Shown here: piece by piece, positions 1 through 8,472 of the stretch
How positions within the stretch are numbered: the first letter of the stretch is position 1
How the letters are laid out: every line of letters begins with the position of its first letter
IMG/VR virus record: IMGVR_UViG_2711768073_000015
Source of the DNA: a virus
Lineage: Duplodnaviria > Heunggongvirae > Uroviricota > Caudoviricetes
Reading direction: 5' to 3' (one strand)
DNA: 8,472 nt
The notes under the pieces: model-generated
Database searches by the model: none
Told to the model about the DNA's origin: nothing
What the model saw: the letters and a program-made list of their open reading frames with translations, nothing else
Position numbers and translations under genes: made by a program

Positions 1-669
1 TTCCTGAATGGCAATATCGCGGGTGTGGGACACAATGGTGTCGATTTCTTCCGGATGAGCAAAGACCATCATATGCCAGTGCACGGTGCCGTCATGGTGA
101 GGCTCCACCGTGCGGATGCCATACCAGCGCAGGCCGTCGCGGTTCAGTTTCTTGCGGACCGCCGCAAAAAACGTGTTAACCAGGTAATCGCTGGAGTCGC
201 GCATGGTGGCCCCGTTCCATTTGGGGTTCGGATGACCGTTCTCCGTTGTTGCGTGGTATTTTGACGGGCAGGTGACAGTCAGAAACACCGCTCTGTCGCC
301 ACGGGCTTCGGCCAGAAGTTCCAGTCCCTTCATGGTGGCCATCATTTCTGCCTTACGGTGAACCGGGTTACTTACTCCCGCGTAATACACTGTCTCGAGA
401 TCAATCGTGAACCCGTCTTCATTTTCCAGCATGAAACTTTTCAGGAAATCGCGTGTTTTCTCGCGCTGTGCGCGAAACTCGCTTAACGCGTCCTGGCTCA
501 GATAGGGTGATGTTTTTCTGGAAACCAGACAGGCGGCGCGGAGTTGTTCTTCTCTCCACTCGCAACGTAACAGCCACAGTTTGCGTTTCCACCATTCCGC
601 ACAGGTCAGGCGAAGGATTGCGCCCGGCAGCAGCTCCGTGTCCGGTTCATTCCTCCGGTCTTTGTCTGT
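1..669. repeat. Direct repeat copy X1 of the gene A core segment (partner 1426..2094; offset 1425 bp)
   Basis: 1..669 aligns to 1426..2094 with a handful of substitutions and no indels (for example 25 matches 1450 and 453 matches 1878 in the ORF track). Homology may continue left of the window edge. Confidence 0.9.
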
Positions 670-2832
670 ATCAACGCCGTCAGGGAGCTGCGGCCACGGT
701 GCTGGCCGTTCTTCCGGCTGTTCTGTCCCGTTGTTGTCCGTTTCCTGTACACGGGGACAGTTATTGCCACGAGTCCAAGGGGCGGCAGGGCCGCCCTGAA
801 GGTCAAAACCATTTTCGCGGGTGCTGTCTTCCGCTTCCGGTTTGCGTCTTACCAGCTTCCAGTTATCCGGATGCGTGCACACACGGGAGGATTCCCCGAT
901 GAGTGGTGACCAGATCCCATAAATCTGTACGCTCTGTTCGCCGTAATCGTTCAGCTCTTCTGCGAGGTCGTAGGCGGTGCGAATCAGGTAGTCTTTGCGT
1001 GGAACAAGCACGCCACCCTGTTTTTCAATGTAGGTGGCAAAACACCCGGCATCAGCGGCAGCGAGTACCGCATCCATTGCGTCATCCTTCAGCCGTTGCG
1101 GGCCTTCCGGGTTGCGTGCCATCTGGCTGGCAAGGCGGCGTAGTTCACGCCACACCTGACGGGAGGGGATGCCAAAGAACTGGAACTGGCGGACCCGGTG
1201 AAGGCGCGCCCAGCCGATGGCGCGCTCCACGCTCTCGGCCATTGATTTTCCGGTTTCGTGGTCAACGCGTGGCTTGCCCGTTTTCGGGTCGATACCATCC
1301 ACGGCGCGGCTGTCCAGGTTCTTTCCGATGTAGGTGGCGATGTAGCTGGTTGGCGTGCCTTTTGAGCCGTCGACATACTCCACCTTAAAGCGCGGAGTAA
1401 TATCATTGCCCAGCTCGTGGCGGTCTTCCTGAATGGCAATATCGCGGGTGTGGGACACAATGGTGTCGATTTCTTCCGGATGAGCAAAGACCATCATATG
1501 CCAGTGCACGGTGCCGTCATGGTGAGGCTCCACCGTGCGGATGCCATACCAGCGCAGGCCGTCGCGGTTCAGTTTCTTGCGGACCGCCGCAAAAAACGTG
1601 TTAACCAGGTAATCGCTGGAGTCGCGCATGGTGGCCCCGTTCCATTTGGGATTCGGATGACCGTTCTCTGTTGTGGCGTGGTATTTTGACGGGCAGGTGA
1701 CAGTCAGAAACACCGCTCTGTCGCCACGGGCTTCGGCCAGAAGTTCCAGCCCCTTCATGGTGGCCATCATTTCTGCCTTACGGTGAATCGGGTTACTTAC
1801 TCCCGCGTAATACACTGTCTCGAGATCAATCGTGAACCCGTCTTCGTTTTCCAGCATGAAACTTTTCAGGAAATCGCGTGTTTTCTCGCGCTGTGCGCGA
1901 AACTCGCTTAACGCGTCCTGGCTCAGATAGGGTGATGTTTTTCTGGAAACCAGACAGGCGGCGCGGAGTTGTTCTTCTCTCCACTCGCAACGTAACAGCC
2001 ACAGTTTGCGTTTCCACCATTCCGCACAGGTCAGGCGAAGGATTGCGCCCGGCAGCAGCTCCGTGTCCGGTTCATTCCTCCGGTCTTTGTCTGTTGTCAG
2101 AGCGTCATAATGTGGAGGCATAGCGTGCAGGTGTAACGCCATGCGGGCCAGCATCTGATACGCCTTCAGCGTTACATCCATGGTCAGCTCGCCATCGGTC
2201 GCGCCAAAGCCATCGCAGAGTTTTTCAAAAGTGCCACTGAACATCGCCGCCGTCATGGTGGCCAGCGTCTGTATCTGGTGTTTGTTGAGCTGCGGCAGGT
2301 AAAGCAAATCGTCCAGGCGTTCGCGTCCGGCAAGGGAGCGATAGCCCGGTGTCAGCCAGCGGCTGTCGGTGCGGTCCAGACGTTCGAATATTTTGCGCAG
2401 GGTTCCGCGCGCGTAGCGTTCAGCCTGCCAGCTCTTTTTGCCTTTCTGACGATCGGCTTCCTGCTTCTTGCGCAGAAAAGAGAGGTGGCGGCTCAGAGGT
2501 TCACGCAGATAAACGGGAAGCACCTTCAGTGTGGCAAAAGCACGGGCCACCGGGTCTTGTTCTGTTGCCTGACGCTTGCTGATGATGCTTTGTGCCAGCT
2601 TTTCACGCTGTCCGGCTTCCTCAAGGGATGCCATGAGTTTTTTACCCACGGTGGATTGTGCGAAAAAGGCTTCTTCCTTCGCTTCCTGTTCTTCCTGTGC
2701 CCTTTTGTTTGCCTCAAGGTAGTAACGGATGGCGCGTTGCAGGTCGGTTTCAGTTTCCTGCCTGCGCTCCGTAAATCTGGCCGGATCAATGGCTGGCCGT
2801 GGTTCATTCCAGCTCCATGCAAACGCACTCAT
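1..2832 (-). CDS. A: Replication initiation endonuclease, P2 gpA family (HUH rolling-circle initiator); partial, runs off the window at its 3' end; contains an in-frame internal repeat
   Basis: Minus-strand frame (codons at 3k+1..3k+3) is open from ATG 2832..2830 to the window edge in every segment I hand-translated (1..420 and 1321..1440); 421..1320 and 1441..2830 were not fully hand-translated, so that stretch is inferred. The ORF track omits it, presumably because no stop lies inside the window. Translation shows TSPYLSQDALSEFRAQREKTRDFLKSFMLENEDG, the HUH motif GIRTVEPHHDGTVHWHMMVF (encoded at 1486..1545 and again at 61..120) and paired tyrosines SYIATYIGK (1321..1347), matching the motif order I recall for P2 protein A. 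Confidence 0.85.
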   Translation of the reverse strand, partial: MSAFAWSWNEPRPAIDPARFTERRQETETDLQRAIRYYLEANKRAQEEQEAKEEAFFAQSTVGKKLMASLEEAGQREKLAQSIISKRQATEQDPVARAFATLKVLPVYLREPLSRHLSFLRKKQEADRQKGKKSWQAERYARGTLRKIFERLDRTDSRWLTPGYRSLAGRERLDDLLYLPQLNKHQIQTLATMTAAMFSGTFEKLCDGFGATDGELTMDVTLKAYQMLARMALHLHAMPPHYDALTTDKDRRNEPDTELLPGAILRLTCAEWWKRKLWLLRCEWREEQLRAACLVSRKTSPYLSQDALSEFRAQREKTRDFLKSFMLENEDGFTIDLETVYYAGVSNPIHRKAEMMATMKGLELLAEARGDRAVFLTVTCPSKYHATTENGHPNPKWNGATMRDSSDYLVNTFFAAVRKKLNRDGLRWYGIRTVEPHHDGTVHWHMMVFAHPEEIDTIVSHTRDIAIQEDRHELGNDITPRFKVEYVDGSKGTPTSYIATYIGKNLDSRAVDGIDPKTGKPRVDHETGKSMAESVERAIGWARLHRVRQFQFFGIPSRQVWRELRRLASQMARNPEGPQRLKDDAMDAVLAAADAGCFATYIEKQGGVLVPRKDYLIRTAYDLAEELNDYGEQSVQIYGIWSPLIGESSRVCTHPDNWKLVRRKPEAEDSTRENGFDLQGGPAAPWTRGNNCPRVQETDNNGTEQPEERPAPWPQLPDGVDTDKDRRNEPDTELLPGAILRLTCAEWWKRKLWLLRCEWREEQLRAACLVSRKTSPYLSQDALSEFRAQREKTRDFLKSFMLENEDGFTIDLETVYYAGVSNPVHRKAEMMATMKGLELLAEARGDRAVFLTVTCPSKYHATTENGHPNPKWNGATMRDSSDYLVNTFFAAVRKKLNRDGLRWYGIRTVEPHHDGTVHWHMMVFAHPEEIDTIVSHTRDIAIQE
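1426..2094. repeat. Direct repeat copy X2 (partner 1..669)
   Basis: Same alignment. Identity ends at 2094/2095, where the two copies continue into different sequence (670.. versus 2095..). Confidence 0.9.
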
Positions 2833-2921
2833 GGCTGGTATCCCGTCACGCGCTGCCACTCCTGTGAGAAGAGGGCGGAAAGGCGGTTAAATTCAGCGGA
2901 GTATTCAATCAGCGAGGCACA
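1799..2921. repeat. Tandem duplication unit, copy 1 (1123 bp)
   Basis: 1799..2921 aligns to 2922..4044 at a constant offset of 1123 with scattered substitutions (for example g2825 versus t3948). The two copies abut directly, head to tail. Confidence 0.9.
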
Positions 2922-3955
2922 ACTCCCGCGTAATACACTGTCTCGAGATCAATCGTGAACCCGTCTTCATTTTCCAGCATGAAACTTTTCAGGAAATCGC
3001 GTGTTTTCTCGCGCTGTGCGCGAAACTCGCTTAACGCGTCCTGGCTCAGATAGGGTGATGTTTTTCTGGAAACCAGACAGGCGGCGCGGAGTTGTTCTTC
3101 TCTCCACTCGCAACGTAACAGCCACAGTTTGCGTTTCCACCATTCCGCACAGGTCAGGCGAAGGATTGCGCCCGGCAGCAGCTCCGTGTCCGGTTCGTTC
3201 CTCCGGTCTTTGTCTGTTGTCAGTGCGTCATAATGTGGAGGCATGGCGTGCAGGTGTAACGCCATGCGGGCCAGCATCTGATACGCCTTCAGCGTTACAT
3301 CCATGGTCAGTTCGCCATCAGTCGCGCCAAAGCCATCGCAGAGTTTTTCGAAGGTGCTGCTGAACATCGCCGCCGTCATGGTGGCCAGCGTCTGTATCTG
3401 GTGTTTGTTGAGCTGCGGCAGGTAAAGCAAATCGTCCAGGCGTTCGCGTCCGGCAAGGGAGCGATAGCCCGGTGTCAGCCAGCGGCTGTCGGTGCGGTCC
3501 AGACGTTCGAATATTTTGCGCAGGGTTCCGCGCGCGTAGCGTTCAGCCTGCCAGCTCTTTTTGCCTTTCTGACGATCGGCTTCCTGCTTCTTGCGCAGAA
3601 AAGAGAGGTGGCGGCTCAGAGGTTCACGCAGATAAACGGGAAGCACCTTCAGTGTGGCAAAAGCACGGGCCACCGGGTCTTGTTCTGTTGCCTGACGCTT
3701 GCTGATGATGCTTTGTGCCAGCTTTTCACGCTGTCCGGCTTCCTCAAGGGATGCCATGAGTTTTTTACCCACGGTGGATTGTGCGAAAAAGGCTTCCTCC
3801 TTCGCTTCCTGTTCTTCCAGAGCCTTTTTGTCTGCCTCAAGGTAGTAACGGATGGCGCGTTGCAGGTCGGTTTCAGTTTCCTGCCTGTGCTCCGTAAATC
3901 TGGCCGGATCAATGGCTGGTCGTGGTTCATTCCAGCTCCATGCAAACTCACTCAT
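2909..3955 (-). pseudogene. Truncated 5' duplicate of replication gene A (348 codons; lacks HUH and Tyr core)
   Basis: ATG at 3955..3953 overlaps the TGA of the upstream ORF (ATGA). Translation MSEFAWSWNEPRPAID... is near-identical to the N-terminus of the copy starting at 2832. The frame breaks 13 nt after the duplication junction (2921/2922) at TGA 2911..2909 because the 1123-bp unit is not a multiple of 3. The ORF track lists it from a GTG at 3982. Confidence 0.6.
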
Positions 3956-4044
3956 GGCTGGTATCCCGTCACGCGCTGCCACTCCTGCAAGAAGATGGTG
4001 GAAAGGCGGTTAAATTCAGCGGTGTATTCACTCAGCGAGGCACA
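2922..4044. repeat. Tandem duplication unit, copy 2 (1123 bp)
   Basis: As above. The segment 2922..3217 is a third copy of 374..669 and 1799..2094. Confidence 0.9.
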
Positions 4045-4341
4045 CCCGCCAGCAGTGCGATGCGCCAGCATTGCCGCAAATACGGAGGCCGGGGAGTCGT
4101 AATACGCCAGCAGTGATTCGCCGTGCGGTGTCAGGCAGTGCAACGCCAGTCCGTGTGGTGTGAAGTCCACGCGGTAGCAGTCGTCTACTGTGAAATAAAG
4201 GGTATCCACATTCTCCGGTTTTGTAGTGCGTGCTCTGTTGTCACGACCACGGATGTAAAGATCAAATAATCCTTGGAGAACGGGAGCCAGACGGGTGTCC
4301 TGTGTGCGCACCCATCTTGTGAAGTCATGAGCGTCAATCAT
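3952..4341 (-). CDS. Hypothetical phage early protein (129 aa), immediately upstream of and coupled to gene A
   Basis: ORF track; ATG at 4341; stop TGA 3954..3952 overlaps the A-type start codon. A copy of its last 89 bp is duplicated at 2833..2921. Confidence 0.6.
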   Translation of the reverse strand: MIDAHDFTRWVRTQDTRLAPVLQGLFDLYIRGRDNRARTTKPENVDTLYFTVDDCYRVDFTPHGLALHCLTPHGESLLAYYDSPASVFAAMLAHRTAGGCASLSEYTAEFNRLSTIFLQEWQRVTGYQP

Positions 4342-4449
4342 GCTGCAATTCTCTCTACTAAGGATGTGCGAAGGCTTCCTGCCAAAAAACTCAGAAGCGG
4401 TCGGTTACAGAAATTGGCGTTCTACGAGTAGTTATTGCTGGCTTGAGGT

Positions 4450-4668
4450 TCATTTCTGTTTAATTCCGTGCATGCTGTAGAAGAAATCAAAAGTGTTATC
4501 TATGCGTATCATGAGCTCACGCTGCATCGCTTCTGGTGTTTCTGGTTCACCTGGTGAGCCAACTCCCGCGAAGAAATCACCGATCTCGCTTTGAATAAGT
4601 GCCTTTAGCGTTGCTGAGGAATTCAGGTGTGTGCGGTGATGTCTGCGAGTGATTCTTCTCCTGCTCAT
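4450..4668 (-). CDS. Hypothetical small phage protein (72 aa)
   Basis: ORF track; ATG 4668..4666 overlaps the TGA 4667..4665 of the upstream ORF (ATGA coupling). Confidence 0.5.
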   Translation of the reverse strand: MSRRRITRRHHRTHLNSSATLKALIQSEIGDFFAGVGSPGEPETPEAMQRELMIRIDNTFDFFYSMHGIKQK

Positions 4669-4868
4669 TTACGTGAATCCTGTACCTGTCGGATAAGATT
4701 CACCCGCGCCACATTAGTGGCGCAGAAGTAAGTACCGTCAGTGAGATAGATGTGGTGTGCATCCTTTTCTGAGCGGTGTTTGTCGATTGTGGTAATCAGG
4801 CGTTCGTCGACTTCGTATTCACGTCCTCTGGAAGTGAAACGAACGACAGGAAAATGCTTAATTGCCAT
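4665..4868 (-). CDS. Hypothetical small phage protein (67 aa)
   Basis: ORF track; ATG 4868..4866 preceded on the minus strand by AGGAGG (complement of 4873..4878) with a 4-nt spacer. Confidence 0.55.
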   Translation of the reverse strand: MAIKHFPVVRFTSRGREYEVDERLITTIDKHRSEKDAHHIYLTDGTYFCATNVARVNLIRQVQDSRK

Positions 4869-4955
4869 TACGCCTCCTGGGCGTGTGCGAATACCTCCGC
4901 GAATGCGGATTGTTTTTACATTTTCTTATTTAACCTAGGGTTTTTATTTGCGCTG

Positions 4956-5069
4956 TTATTCGCCAGTGAAAAAGCGTTCAATCTTTTTTACTGAATGAAT
5001 AATTTGCATAATCCCAATGGCGCAGACCACCGAAATAATCAGAACAAGCCATGAGATAAATATACTCAT
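4956..5069 (-). CDS. Putative small hydrophobic membrane peptide (37 aa, MSIFISWLVLIISVVCAIGIMQIIHSVKKIERFFTGE)
   Basis: Hand-translated; not in the ORF track (too short). ATG 5069..5067 overlaps the TGA 5068..5066 of the upstream 80-aa ORF; stop TAA at 4958..4956. Residues 3 to 24 are almost entirely hydrophobic, consistent with one transmembrane helix. Confidence 0.4.
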   Translation of the reverse strand: MSIFISWLVLIISVVCAIGIMQIIHSVKKIERFFTGE

Positions 5070-5308
5070 GCAATATTCCCCAGCTTATACGGTTCAATAT
5101 GCTCCCCGCATTCTGCGGCACAGATCAGCTCGGAAAGTTCGTTAAGTGCATCCAGATCATCAGCGTAAAAAGCCACGTCATACAGACTCCGGATTGCCCT
5201 GGTCAATGAGTCACGGGCTGCACGTTCAGCATGAGCACCTGATGCACTTAAGCGAAAATAAAAACGCTCAAGTGCTTTGTTAATGAGAGTTTTATATTCT
5301 TTGCCCAT
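5066..5308 (-). CDS. Hypothetical small phage protein (80 aa)
   Basis: ORF track; ATG 5308..5306; lies 11 nt downstream of the stop of the preceding ORF in the same operon. Confidence 0.55.
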   Translation of the reverse strand: MGKEYKTLINKALERFYFRLSASGAHAERAARDSLTRAIRSLYDVAFYADDLDALNELSELICAAECGEHIEPYKLGNIA

Positions 5309-5319
5309 CGCAACGCCCT

Positions 5320-5598
5320 TTAATCTGCTTTCTGAATTTCAGCTTCTGAATCTATACAAATAATTTCGATATAGGGTTCATCGCCATTAATCTTACGTGC
5401 TTTTTCAGCTTCGCTAATGATTCCGTGTACAGTCTGGTACGGAAGTTCTACGGTCAGGCGCGTGCCGTTCAGATAAACGTAAGTAGCTGCATTTTTTTCT
5501 GATGGGACAACTCCATCAATAGCTGATGCGCGCAATAACAGTTCACCGCGAAAATCAATAAAACGGATAAATACACCTTGTGCATGCTCTTTGGTCAT
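5320..5598 (-). CDS. Hypothetical small phage protein (92 aa; start chosen at internal ATG)
   Basis: ORF track gives 5320..5697, but that N-terminus overlaps the upstream ORF. ATG at 5598..5596 is preceded by AGGTG (complement of 5603..5607) and lies 10 nt after the upstream stop (5611..5609). Confidence 0.5.
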   Translation of the reverse strand: MTKEHAQGVFIRFIDFRGELLLRASAIDGVVPSEKNAATYVYLNGTRLTVELPYQTVHGIISEAEKARKINGDEPYIEIICIDSEAEIQKAD

Positions 5599-5608
5599 AA
5601 CGCACCTG

Positions 5609-5947
5609 TTATAAATCAGTCTGTTTAATAAAACTTTGCCTGCGAAGCAGACGATCAACCGTGCGAAGTGCTTCGTACAATGTGAAATCCTGTCCAAACT
5701 GATTGTCGCCGTTGCTCAGAGCAAAAATGCGGTTTCCGGTAAATGGGTTGCGTTGGCATCTCTGAACCACGATTCCAGCTTTTTCAATCAGCCAGGTGTG
5801 TTCGCCAATTTGTTTTACTGTATGGCCATCTGGCGTTGCGTGCGTCTCGCTCAGGCTGTAGCGGATGTTGCTGCGTGATGCGCTGGTAGCGAAACGGTTA
5901 GCTTGGCGTTCCGTTTCGGTGCGAAAATTACGGCGTTGCTTCAGCAT
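5609..5947 (-). CDS. Hypothetical phage early protein (112 aa)
   Basis: ORF track; ATG 5947..5945 preceded by GAGGTG (complement of 5953..5958); 14 nt after the stop of the first early gene. Confidence 0.55.
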   Translation of the reverse strand: MLKQRRNFRTETERQANRFATSASRSNIRYSLSETHATPDGHTVKQIGEHTWLIEKAGIVVQRCQRNPFTGNRIFALSNGDNQFGQDFTLYEALRTVDRLLRRQSFIKQTDL

Positions 5948-5961
5948 AAAATGACACCTCG

Positions 5962-6240
5962 TTATTTTGTCATCTGCACGTATTTCTCTGCGTTTCTGAT
6001 GGTTTTCAGGAAAATTGCGAAGAGATTTACTGTACGTTTTGAGTTTTTTTCTTCTTGGTTGATGGGAAGGGCTGCTCTGTCAGCCTGCCTTTTCACTGCA
6101 TTAACAGTTTGATTGGTACGCTTCGCGTAATCTTTCAGGCTTTCTTCGAGTACCGGTAATCCATGCTCATCGCGGTATGGGTAGAACGCCGCCAAACGCT
6201 CAAAATCCGCTTGCTCGTATGTGTTCAAGAGCTTTGTCAT
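5962..6240 (-). CDS. First gene of the early (lytic) operon, in the Cox/Apl position; sequence not recognisably P2 Cox
   Basis: ORF track (92 aa); divergent from the C-like repressor gene across a 91-bp switch region. The call is positional only. Confidence 0.5.
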   Translation of the reverse strand: MTKLLNTYEQADFERLAAFYPYRDEHGLPVLEESLKDYAKRTNQTVNAVKRQADRAALPINQEEKNSKRTVNLFAIFLKTIRNAEKYVQMTK

Positions 6241-6331
6241 GATGTGATAACCTGTTCAGTCTGTGGTTATTTGTTGCTAAAAGTCGTCTATAGGCGACTT
6301 TTAGGGTTAATTTAGTCGTCTGGAGACCACC
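6241..6331. promoter_or_regulatory. Divergent immunity-switch region with candidate operator sites
   Basis: Near-perfect 28-bp palindrome ctaaaagtcgtcta/taggcgacttttag at 6277..6304 (10-bp arms perfect, one mismatch in the inner 4 bp). Direct repeats of agtcgtct at 6282..6289 and 6314..6321. GGAG at 6322..6325 sits 6 nt before the repressor ATG at 6332. Confidence 0.5.
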
Positions 6332-6643
6332 ATGTCAAGTGGGTACGAAAAAAAACTGAAAGAGATACGGAAAAGTGAAGGGTTAACTCAAGCTGAGTTT
6401 GCTGATGTTACTGGGATAAATCTCGGAACTATAAAGAATTATGAGAGCGGTAAAAGAGAGGTTGGTTTAAGCGTTGTTGATCGCGTAATTAATTCTAAGG
6501 ATTTCGAAAAATACACTATATGGCTTATGACGGGAAAAACAAATGAGGCTGCTGGGCAGATCAGTCCCTCTCTCTCCCCTGATGGGCCAGAAAACACATC
6601 GTCTTCTCAAAAGCCCCGCAAGACTGGTACACAGCCCGGCTAA
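6332..6643 (+). CDS. C: Immunity repressor, P2 C-like (helix-turn-helix)
   Basis: ORF track (103 aa). The segments LTQAEFADVTGINLGTIKNYESGKRE and FEKYTIWLMTGKTNEAAGQISPSLSPDG closely parallel the P2 C repressor as I recall it. Positioned immediately upstream of int on the same strand, as in P2. Confidence 0.8.
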   Translation: MSSGYEKKLKEIRKSEGLTQAEFADVTGINLGTIKNYESGKREVGLSVVDRVINSKDFEKYTIWLMTGKTNEAAGQISPSLSPDGPENTSSSQKPRKTGTQPG

Positions 6644-6692
6644 TCATGGAACGCTGGGGGCATGGTGGTCTTGTAACGCTGGGGTTTCACGA

Positions 6693-7670
6693 ATGAGCAT
6701 AAAATCAATTCCGGGAGGGTATCTTCTTGACATGCGCCCTGAGGGGCGTAAAGGCAAACGCATTCGCAAAAAATTTAAAACGAAATCGGATGCAGTTTTA
6801 TATGAGCGGTGGGTGCTGGCGCAACAGCATAACAATGAGTGGAAAGGAAACTCTATTGATCGCCGTCCTCTGTCAGTGCTTATTGACTTGTGGTGGAAAT
6901 ACCACGGCCAGCTAATGAAGTCAGGGCATAACACGCGCCTTAAATTGCTGCGCTTGAGTGAAGCAATGGATGACCCGTGCGTGCATAAACTTAATACAAC
7001 GATGCTCACCGAGCTACGTGTGTCCAGGATAGAGCAGGGGATACAGCCCAGCACCATAAATCGAGAGATTGGGGCGTTAAGCGCGATGTTTACCGCACTC
7101 ATCTCATCCGGCCATTTTCTTAACGATAACCCCGTTCAAGGCCTTAAAGGAATGAAGGTTAACGAGCGCGAAATGGGATATCTGAGTAAGTCTGAATGTG
7201 TTCAGTTGCTGGATGCACTGGCTGAAAATCCCGATGAACGACTGGCTGTCGAAATCCTTCTGTCGACCGGGGCGCGATGGGGCGAGGTAGCGGCACTGGA
7301 GCAGCGCCGTGTTCTTCATTGTCGAATCACTTTTTCAAAAACGAAGAACAGCAAAAACCGTACCGTTCCTATTTCTGAAAGCCTGTTTGAAAAGATCAAA
7401 AAACGGGGCGGGAAACTGGTGTTTCCGACGCTGGATTATTCATTGGTTCGCGATGTCATCAAAACGGTCGCACCTGATGTTCCTGACGGCCAGGCTGTTC
7501 ATGCGCTGCGCCACACCTTCGCCAGTCATTTCATGATGAACGGCGGCAATATTCTGACGCTCCAGAAAATTCTGGGGCACGCAAAGATTCAGACAACGAT
7601 GATTTATGCCCATCTTGCGCCGGATTACCTGCAGGATGCGGTGAGGTTTAATCCACTAGGAGGTGCTTAA
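6693..7670 (+). CDS. int: Tyrosine recombinase / phage integrase (325 aa), P2 Int-like
   Basis: ORF track frame 6543..7670. I place the start at ATG 6693 (MSIKSIPGGYLLDMRPEGRKGKRIRKKF...) because the 6543 start would overlap the repressor gene. C-terminal catalytic signature HALRHTFASHFMMNGGNILTLQKILGHAKIQTTMIYAHL (HxxR ... Y). Stop TAA at 7668..7670. Confidence 0.9.
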   Translation: MSIKSIPGGYLLDMRPEGRKGKRIRKKFKTKSDAVLYERWVLAQQHNNEWKGNSIDRRPLSVLIDLWWKYHGQLMKSGHNTRLKLLRLSEAMDDPCVHKLNTTMLTELRVSRIEQGIQPSTINREIGALSAMFTALISSGHFLNDNPVQGLKGMKVNEREMGYLSKSECVQLLDALAENPDERLAVEILLSTGARWGEVAALEQRRVLHCRITFSKTKNSKNRTVPISESLFEKIKKRGGKLVFPTLDYSLVRDVIKTVAPDVPDGQAVHALRHTFASHFMMNGGNILTLQKILGHAKIQTTMIYAHLAPDYLQDAVRFNPLGGA

Positions 7671-7672
7671 GA

Positions 7673-8035
7673 GTGAAGTTTCATTTAGATGAACTTAAAA
7701 GAATGGCAACGCTCGATAATTTTGCGCGTTTTCTCAATGAGTCGTCTACGAATGAAAAATGTTTGTCGTGTGGCGATACGGATATGTACATGTATTTGAC
7801 GAATATTGTTGAGGTGGGGCCTGAGCCGAAAACTGCTGAGGAGTGTGATTTAGGCACTTTTGTTATGCTTGATTACATCGGTCCATTTACTGGGTATCCG
7901 GGATATGAGGGACATGATCGGGAAAATATCCATAACTATGAATTCCGACTTACCTGTAACAGATGTGGGTTTGTTCATCGTTACTCGGCCCGGGCCTTTA
8001 TGAACTGGGTAGGCAAGCAGGGTGATGAGAAGTGA
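7673..8035 (+). CDS. Hypothetical protein with two CxxC pairs (putative zinc-binding), 120 aa; translationally coupled to int
   Basis: GTG start at 7673, 2 nt after the int stop, with AGGAGG at 7658..7663 (9-nt spacer) inside the int 3' end. Motifs CLSCGD and CNRCGF. Stop TGA 8033..8035. Confidence 0.6.
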   Translation: MKFHLDELKRMATLDNFARFLNESSTNEKCLSCGDTDMYMYLTNIVEVGPEPKTAEECDLGTFVMLDYIGPFTGYPGYEGHDRENIHNYEFRLTCNRCGFVHRYSARAFMNWVGKQGDEK

Positions 8036-8472
8036 TGGCAGAGAATGTTGCACATATTTCGCGGTTCAGAAAAAAGAAAGAGAATGCCTATAATGTATCC
8101 AACAACCAAGTAACAGGAAGTGGTAATGATGGAGGTGATGGCATGAATGACGACCTTGAACGGCGGGTCAGTTGCCTGGAAAGTGATGTGACTGAAATCA
8201 AAAACAACCTGATTACTCTCACCACAAGAAGCGAATCCTTTGCTACCAAATCTGATGTACTGGAGATTCGCGAAGGGTTGAGGCTTGAGATGGCAGAATC
8301 GCGCCAATCCCTGAAGTCTGAGATGGCTGATTTACGCCAGTCTCTGAAAGTTGAGATGGCTGAGCATCGTACTGAACTTCAGAAATCATTTGCAAATCAG
8401 ACTTGGTTACTCACAGGTATTGTCCTGTCTGCGATGGCCGTGCTTGTGGCTGTGGTTACTGTTATTAAGTAA
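8035..8472 (+). CDS. Tail-anchored coiled-coil membrane protein (C-terminal TM helix); start ambiguous (8035 or 8143)
   Basis: ATG 8035 overlaps the upstream TGA (TGATG). An alternative ATG at 8143 has a strong GGAGGTG at 8131..8137 with a 5-nt spacer. Three 11-residue repeats EMAESRQSLKS / EMADLRQSLKV / EMAEHRTELQK precede a hydrophobic C-terminus WLLTGIVLSAMAVLVAVVTVIK (about 8404..8469). Stop TAA 8470..8472 is the last codon of the window. Confidence 0.65.
   Translation: MAENVAHISRFRKKKENAYNVSNNQVTGSGNDGGDGMNDDLERRVSCLESDVTEIKNNLITLTTRSESFATKSDVLEIREGLRLEMAESRQSLKSEMADLRQSLKVEMAEHRTELQKSFANQTWLLTGIVLSAMAVLVAVVTVIK
8287..8385 (+). repeat. Three imperfect 33-bp tandem coding repeats
   Basis: gagatggcagaatcgcgccaatccctgaagtct / gagatggctgatttacgccagtctctgaaagtt / gagatggctgagcatcgtactgaacttcagaaa, encoding the 11-residue coiled-coil repeats of the last gene. 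Confidence 0.8.

Follow-up and report, generated by a model that had tools for sequence, protein, structure and literature searches.

Gene A of P2-like phages is a replication gene encoding the rolling-circle initiator endonuclease (Phage_GPA family). RefSeq relatives of the prophage region considered here carry it as a single copy of 946 aa, annotated 'replication endonuclease'. The phages Chuche, PhiR44_2 and P88 (P88/Xuanwuvirus lineage) are 95-96% identical to the region. Related sequence is present in 1,449 of 5,426 complete Escherichia coli genomes, with up to five related places per genome; the O26 strain 11368, for example, carries two P2-like prophages. The way in which draft genomes are put together also bears on this locus. 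SSPACE and GapFiller, which form part of a widely applied bacterial pipeline, join contigs by read pairs, leaving gaps of Ns, and extend contig ends into these gaps. A gap is closed only where the extended ends overlap and agree with its estimated size; some joins are false, and repeated regions stay open.

The window (the whole stretch of DNA analysed, 8,472 nucleotides) is the terminal 8.5 kb of the draft E. coli contig CYGD01000006.1 (221 kb; GCA_001284425.1). Only 2 nt of the contig lie outside position 1 of the window, whose other end is the last prophage gene beside btuC. Record and window differ at 2 of the 8,472 positions, 670 and 2921, the record giving 'N' at each and the window 'A'. 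No other N occurs among the 13,957 record bases read, and the two lie exactly on the junctions of the repeats found in the window. Given that both junctions are N in the record, the sequence consists of three pieces with one-N joins and contains no sequenced junction. The pieces, the joins and the two copies of the longer repeat are as follows.

1-669, unstranded: piece A, an internal gene A fragment that duplicates 1426-2094 (L001 4756-5424 at 99.7%)
670, unstranded: junction 1, a one-base scaffold gap (L002 13286, N; T in the MS1657 reference, with the alignment beginning at 671)
671-2920, unstranded: piece B, the final 88 nt of the upstream ORF and gene A codons 1-720 (L001 4001-6251 at 97.9%)
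2921, unstranded: junction 2, a one-base scaffold gap and the junction of the claimed duplication (L002 11035, N)
2922-8472, unstranded: piece C, the early region of the btuC-site prophage, from gene A codon 345 to the prophage end by btuC (L001 5129-10679 at 99.59%)
1799-2921, unstranded: repeat copy 1, within piece B, an O26-like allele
2922-4044, unstranded: repeat copy 2, within piece C, an MS1657-like allele

L001 is the locus of the best-matching complete genome, that of E. coli strain MS1657, and L002 that of the source record. On the MS1657 reference the whole window collapses to 6,679 bp with one gene A (L001 3322-6162), a 946-aa 'replication endonuclease' with parM-type genes downstream. 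The three pieces are collinear with the single-copy reference and occupy overlapping intervals on it, which is the pattern left by concatenating overlapping or paralogous contigs end to end. Judging from the record, the gene A repeat is almost certainly an artefact of scaffolding or gap-filling in a short-read draft, present in the file and not in the genome.

Self-BLAST of the window aligned 1799-2921 with 2922-4044 (1123 bp each) at 97.863% identity, with 24 mismatches, no gaps and E = 0. The original prediction, which had described a diverged head-to-tail repeat of 1123 bp differing by substitutions without indels, therefore gave the dimensions correctly. It erred on the junction base at 2921, which is N in the record, and overlooked a second, linked repeat, in which 1-669 corresponds to 1426-2094 at 99.1% (6 mismatches; spacing 1425, or 3 x 475). 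In addition, 374-669 matches 2922-3217 at 99.66%. With X defined as 1-373, Y as 374-669, U as 670-1425 and Z as 2095-2921, the window runs X Y, then U X Y Z, then Y Z, then the rest. Tandem Repeats Finder did not list the 1123-bp repeat, since the longest period it covered was 500. The whole structure lies 2 nt from the end of the contig, at a point where assembly had already failed.

A tandem duplication would present a contiguous, sequenced novel junction, and this is lacking at 2921 and at 670 alike, both being N in the record; the claim of a genuine duplication that headed the earlier description is thus unsupported. Nor do the junctions recur in relatives or in independent assemblies. Probes of 120 bp centred on either junction were spanned in none of the 5,426 complete E. 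coli genomes, and each half of these probes matched more than 1,270 of them. The exact 26-mer over junction 2 had no match in viral contigs, species-representative genomes or metagenome contigs, and the exact 23-base pattern over junction 1 had none in viral contigs, the one set covered for it. The comparison with related A genes that had been proposed as a check thus returned a single-copy 946-aa gene in MS1657 and neither join in any complete E. coli genome.

These results bear on the possibility of a real rearrangement, in which partial tandem duplications of gene A arose by illegitimate recombination between two co-resident P2-like prophages and assembly failed at the joints. Such an origin would accommodate the two alleles in one assembly, the genomes known to hold up to five related places and the piece order given by the scaffolder's read pairs. 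However, a novel joint is unique sequence through which short reads assemble easily, whereas here contig ends and Ns coincide at both joints, so that no joint sequence exists, and neither joint has homology. The joints are also missing from the complete genomes and from contigs (junction 2 from all three sets, junction 1 from the viral set covered for it), and two independent blunt events would be needed, one of them wrecking the Phage_GPA domain. A real rearrangement is therefore very improbable. The specific form in which two blunt illegitimate events yielded a truncated A' and an in-frame, internally duplicated A, with the Ns marking assembler failure at the joints, is to be doubted just as strongly.

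Flanking homology is absent at 670 and at 2921 alike, and neither homologous recombination nor a path through a k-mer graph can account for the joins in its absence. Homologous unequal crossing-over was rejected on this ground, as was a mis-path through a de Bruijn graph, there being no shared k-mer at either junction. A short microhomology (cccgc) had been reported at the junction of the 1123-bp repeat; the motif instead lies 3 nt into the right piece and, in native sequence, just beyond where the left piece stops. It is thus displaced by 3-4 nt relative to the join, and is most readily taken as a chance occurrence. The idea that a junction represents a replication origin or nick site in gene A, which could have made a rolling-circle error plausible, was dropped, as both junctions are N.

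The two copies carry natural alleles. In a site-by-site table, copy 1 has the state of O26:H11 prophages and copy 2 that of MS1657 at 23 of the 24 differing positions, the remaining difference being private. Among complete genomes, the closest matches of piece B are gene A of O26:H11-type prophages (99.2%), and those of piece C are btuC-site prophages such as MS1657 (99.3-99.5%). Allele type switches along the length of pieces A and B; piece B resembles the O26:H11 prophages from about 1357 rightwards and MS1657 to the left of that point. Natural recombinants would explain this switching, as would contigs that cross between collapsed alleles. The 5' two-thirds of gene A is thus represented in the isolate's read set by two alleles or more.

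The same sites decide against the option that the original prediction had offered first, an old tandem duplication, in which the two copies would have accumulated point mutations where they stand. A divergence of about 2%, made up of substitutions without indels, is what such a history could leave behind. However, as 23 of the 24 sites sort by two alleles known from other E. coli genomes, the differences are inherited and do not reflect drift after duplication; a duplication would have left differences private to the locus. The differences also fall in clusters, the copies being identical over 437 bp between offsets 437 and 875, and this is the mosaic pattern of natural alleles, as opposed to clock-like drift. 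With the junction an N and no relative carrying the duplication, this history is exceedingly improbable.

The alleles most likely derive from two co-resident related prophages, and less likely from a mixed culture. If the culture was mixed or contaminated, alleles of two E. coli strains would have entered the same scaffolding artefact. The data show only that two alleles are present in the read set, and the switches of allele type within pieces A and B resemble those of collapsed graphs, both of which agree with a mixture. Contamination is nevertheless unneeded, since several P2-like prophages per genome are common (up to five places; two in strain 11368), and the 14 kb read contains no other sign of mixture. 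A mixed culture is accordingly unlikely, though less so than a real rearrangement. Among the explanations put forward earlier, a chimera assembled from two prophage alleles is the one that the record bears out, in which single-N gaps occupy both junctions and the pieces carry two natural alleles. The old duplication is contradicted by differences that are alleles of other genomes and not private mutations, and a real recombinant of P2-like prophages finds no support in sequence whose junctions were never read.

What the window really contains, apart from the repeat, is the early region of an ordinary P88/P2-like prophage, adjoining btuC. The genes and reading frames are listed below.

1-2832, minus strand: artefactual 944-codon ORF that has no stop, from ATG 2832 and running off the left window edge
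2909-3955, minus strand: artefactual 'truncated A'' ORF of 348 aa, from ATG 3955 to a stop at 2909-2911, 13 nt past the junction
3955-2922, minus strand: the 5' 1034 nt of gene A, in piece C
3952-4341, minus strand: upstream ORF, a hypothetical protein of 129 aa (WP_000564234.1 homologue; no Pfam family), with its last 89 nt in the repeat unit
Within piece C: small early ORFs, including DUF4754 and DUF4761 proteins (RefSeq/Pfam)
5962-6240, minus strand: DNA-binding protein, in piece C
6332-6643, plus strand: HTH_3 repressor-like gene (Pfam)
6732-7670, plus strand: tyrosine integrase (Pfam)
Between the integrase and btuC: two unannotated ORFs

For the two unannotated ORFs, Pfam and PADLOC gave only sub-threshold matches of coiled-coil type. 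The identity of the repeated gene as replication gene A of a P2-like prophage, encoded on the minus strand, was correctly recognized in the original prediction. The translation of piece B matches the whole of Phage_GPA (PF05840; E = 5.6e-130; profile positions 1-321 of 321; residues 185-509), and its relatives in RefSeq are the replication endonucleases. The gene belongs to a P2-like early operon beside an integrase/repressor switch, as indicated by the MS1657 and O26 RefSeq loci, by Pfam and by the phage matches.

Both unusual forms of the gene are artefacts, the A' that stops early as well as the A frame that stays open over 944 codons. The A' frame begins as genuine gene A of the btuC-site prophage, for its first 1034 nt, and then continues across the N gap into piece B, which is out of frame. 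It matches Phage_GPA positions 1-156 of 321 only, junction 2 cutting the domain at 156. The 348 codons and the stop 13 nt past the junction had been read correctly from the letters, as had the inclusion of 89 nt of the upstream ORF in the repeat unit, the stretch from 3955 to 4044 falling within the ORF at 3952-4341. The 348-aa protein is recorded from one contig only, CYGD01000006.1 itself, and the gene recorded there does not translate to the 348-aa query, owing to the N/A mismatch at the junctions. As for the second frame, an ATG at 2832 does open the second copy of gene A. This frame is not a full A: the 944 codons have no stop and consist of codons 1-720 of the second allele, a codon holding the N at 670, and 223 repeated codons of piece A. 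CYGD01000006.1 lacks the genuine end of gene A, ~226 C-terminal residues (3' ~680 nt).

The scaffolding artefact most likely arose in a few steps. With two gene A alleles in the read set, separate contigs would have been assembled for the region, and a paired-read scaffolder would then have strung 1-669, 671-2920 and 2922-8472 together. The pieces overlap in true genome coordinates, which would have left ends that could not be merged and one residual N per join. Preparation of the window turned these Ns into 'A', so that a join came to mimic the sequenced, blunt junction of a head-to-tail duplication. Piece order was set by the scaffolder's read pairs, a linkage that a real rearrangement would also give.

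As to the software responsible, a pipeline of the SSPACE/GapFiller type is a guess. A single N would be the SSPACE convention for a gap whose estimated size is non-positive. A search for a citable statement that one N denotes a non-positive gap returned descriptions of general SSPACE/GapFiller behaviour only, and a search for literature naming GCA_001284425.1, by which the assembly pipeline might be identified, found none.

If the repeat is such an artefact, it is without biological importance. Its relevance is to sequence scanning, as single-N gaps that have been turned into a real base look like blunt-ended, diverged tandem duplications, and they also make genes look truncated or over-long when they are not. 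In scanning raw windows, ambiguous bases should be retained or flagged, and repeats of prophage genes near contig ends should be regarded with suspicion.

The locus has the features of one-N scaffold gaps in drafts of the SSPACE/GapFiller type, with which it shares one ambiguous base per join between flanks that overlap in the reference, as well as a repeated prophage gene at a contig end. Compared with the early regions of P2-like phages, it has the usual neighbours (an integrase, an HTH repressor and small early genes), and nothing about it is unusual once the artefact is removed.

In the window, gene A, the P2/P88-like replication gene, shows a second head-to-tail repeat beyond the coordinates of the reported one (1799-2921 and 2922-4044): positions 1-669 recur as 1426-2094, and 374-669 also recur as 2922-3217. 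The 1425-bp spacing of this second repeat is in frame, and the gene A reading frame therefore stays open up to the contig end. Its cause is shared with the reported repeat, judged a scaffold-join artefact, and lies in the N at 670. Positions 670 and 2921 are both 'N' in the public record (CYGD01000006.1) and 'A' in the window; the ambiguous bases appear to have been swapped for real ones during window preparation, a replacement that conceals the scaffold gaps from anyone reading the raw sequence.

Within the piece spanning 2922-8472, a cluster of 12 differences from the complete genome MS1657 occupies 3467-3713 (5674-5920 in L001, the MS1657 locus with its btuC-site prophage), and all 12 have the state of O26:H11-type prophages. 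Copies 1 and 2 of the reported repeat are identical across this patch, which represents either natural recombination between gene A alleles or the collapsed consensus of two alleles.

At the extreme prophage end, two ORFs lie between the integrase and chromosomal btuC:

7673-8035, plus strand, ORF of 120 aa
8035-8472, plus strand, ORF of 145 aa, the last in the window
8279-8363, 33-bp tandem repeat inside the preceding ORF (2.4 copies, 81% matches)

Neither ORF has an above-threshold family match in Pfam or PADLOC, and both may be cargo genes. The tandem repeat encodes an 11-residue repeat, with sub-threshold, coiled-coil-like sequences as the sole matches (Pfam Fez1, E = 0.005; PADLOC LmuB, E = 0.0075).

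In the P2/P88-like lineage, the gene A product is 946 aa long (L001 3322-6162); its Phage_GPA domain is limited to residues 185-509, and no Pfam family matches the ~185 residues on its N-terminal side or the ~435 on its C-terminal side. Absent from the window's contig is a stretch that follows gene A of integrated P2/P88-like prophages in complete genomes, comprising a plasmid segregation gene of the ParM type and a second gene, 'plasmid partitioning/stability':

L001 1967-3245, both genes, after gene A
L003 (another complete-genome prophage locus) 970-2245, both genes, after gene A
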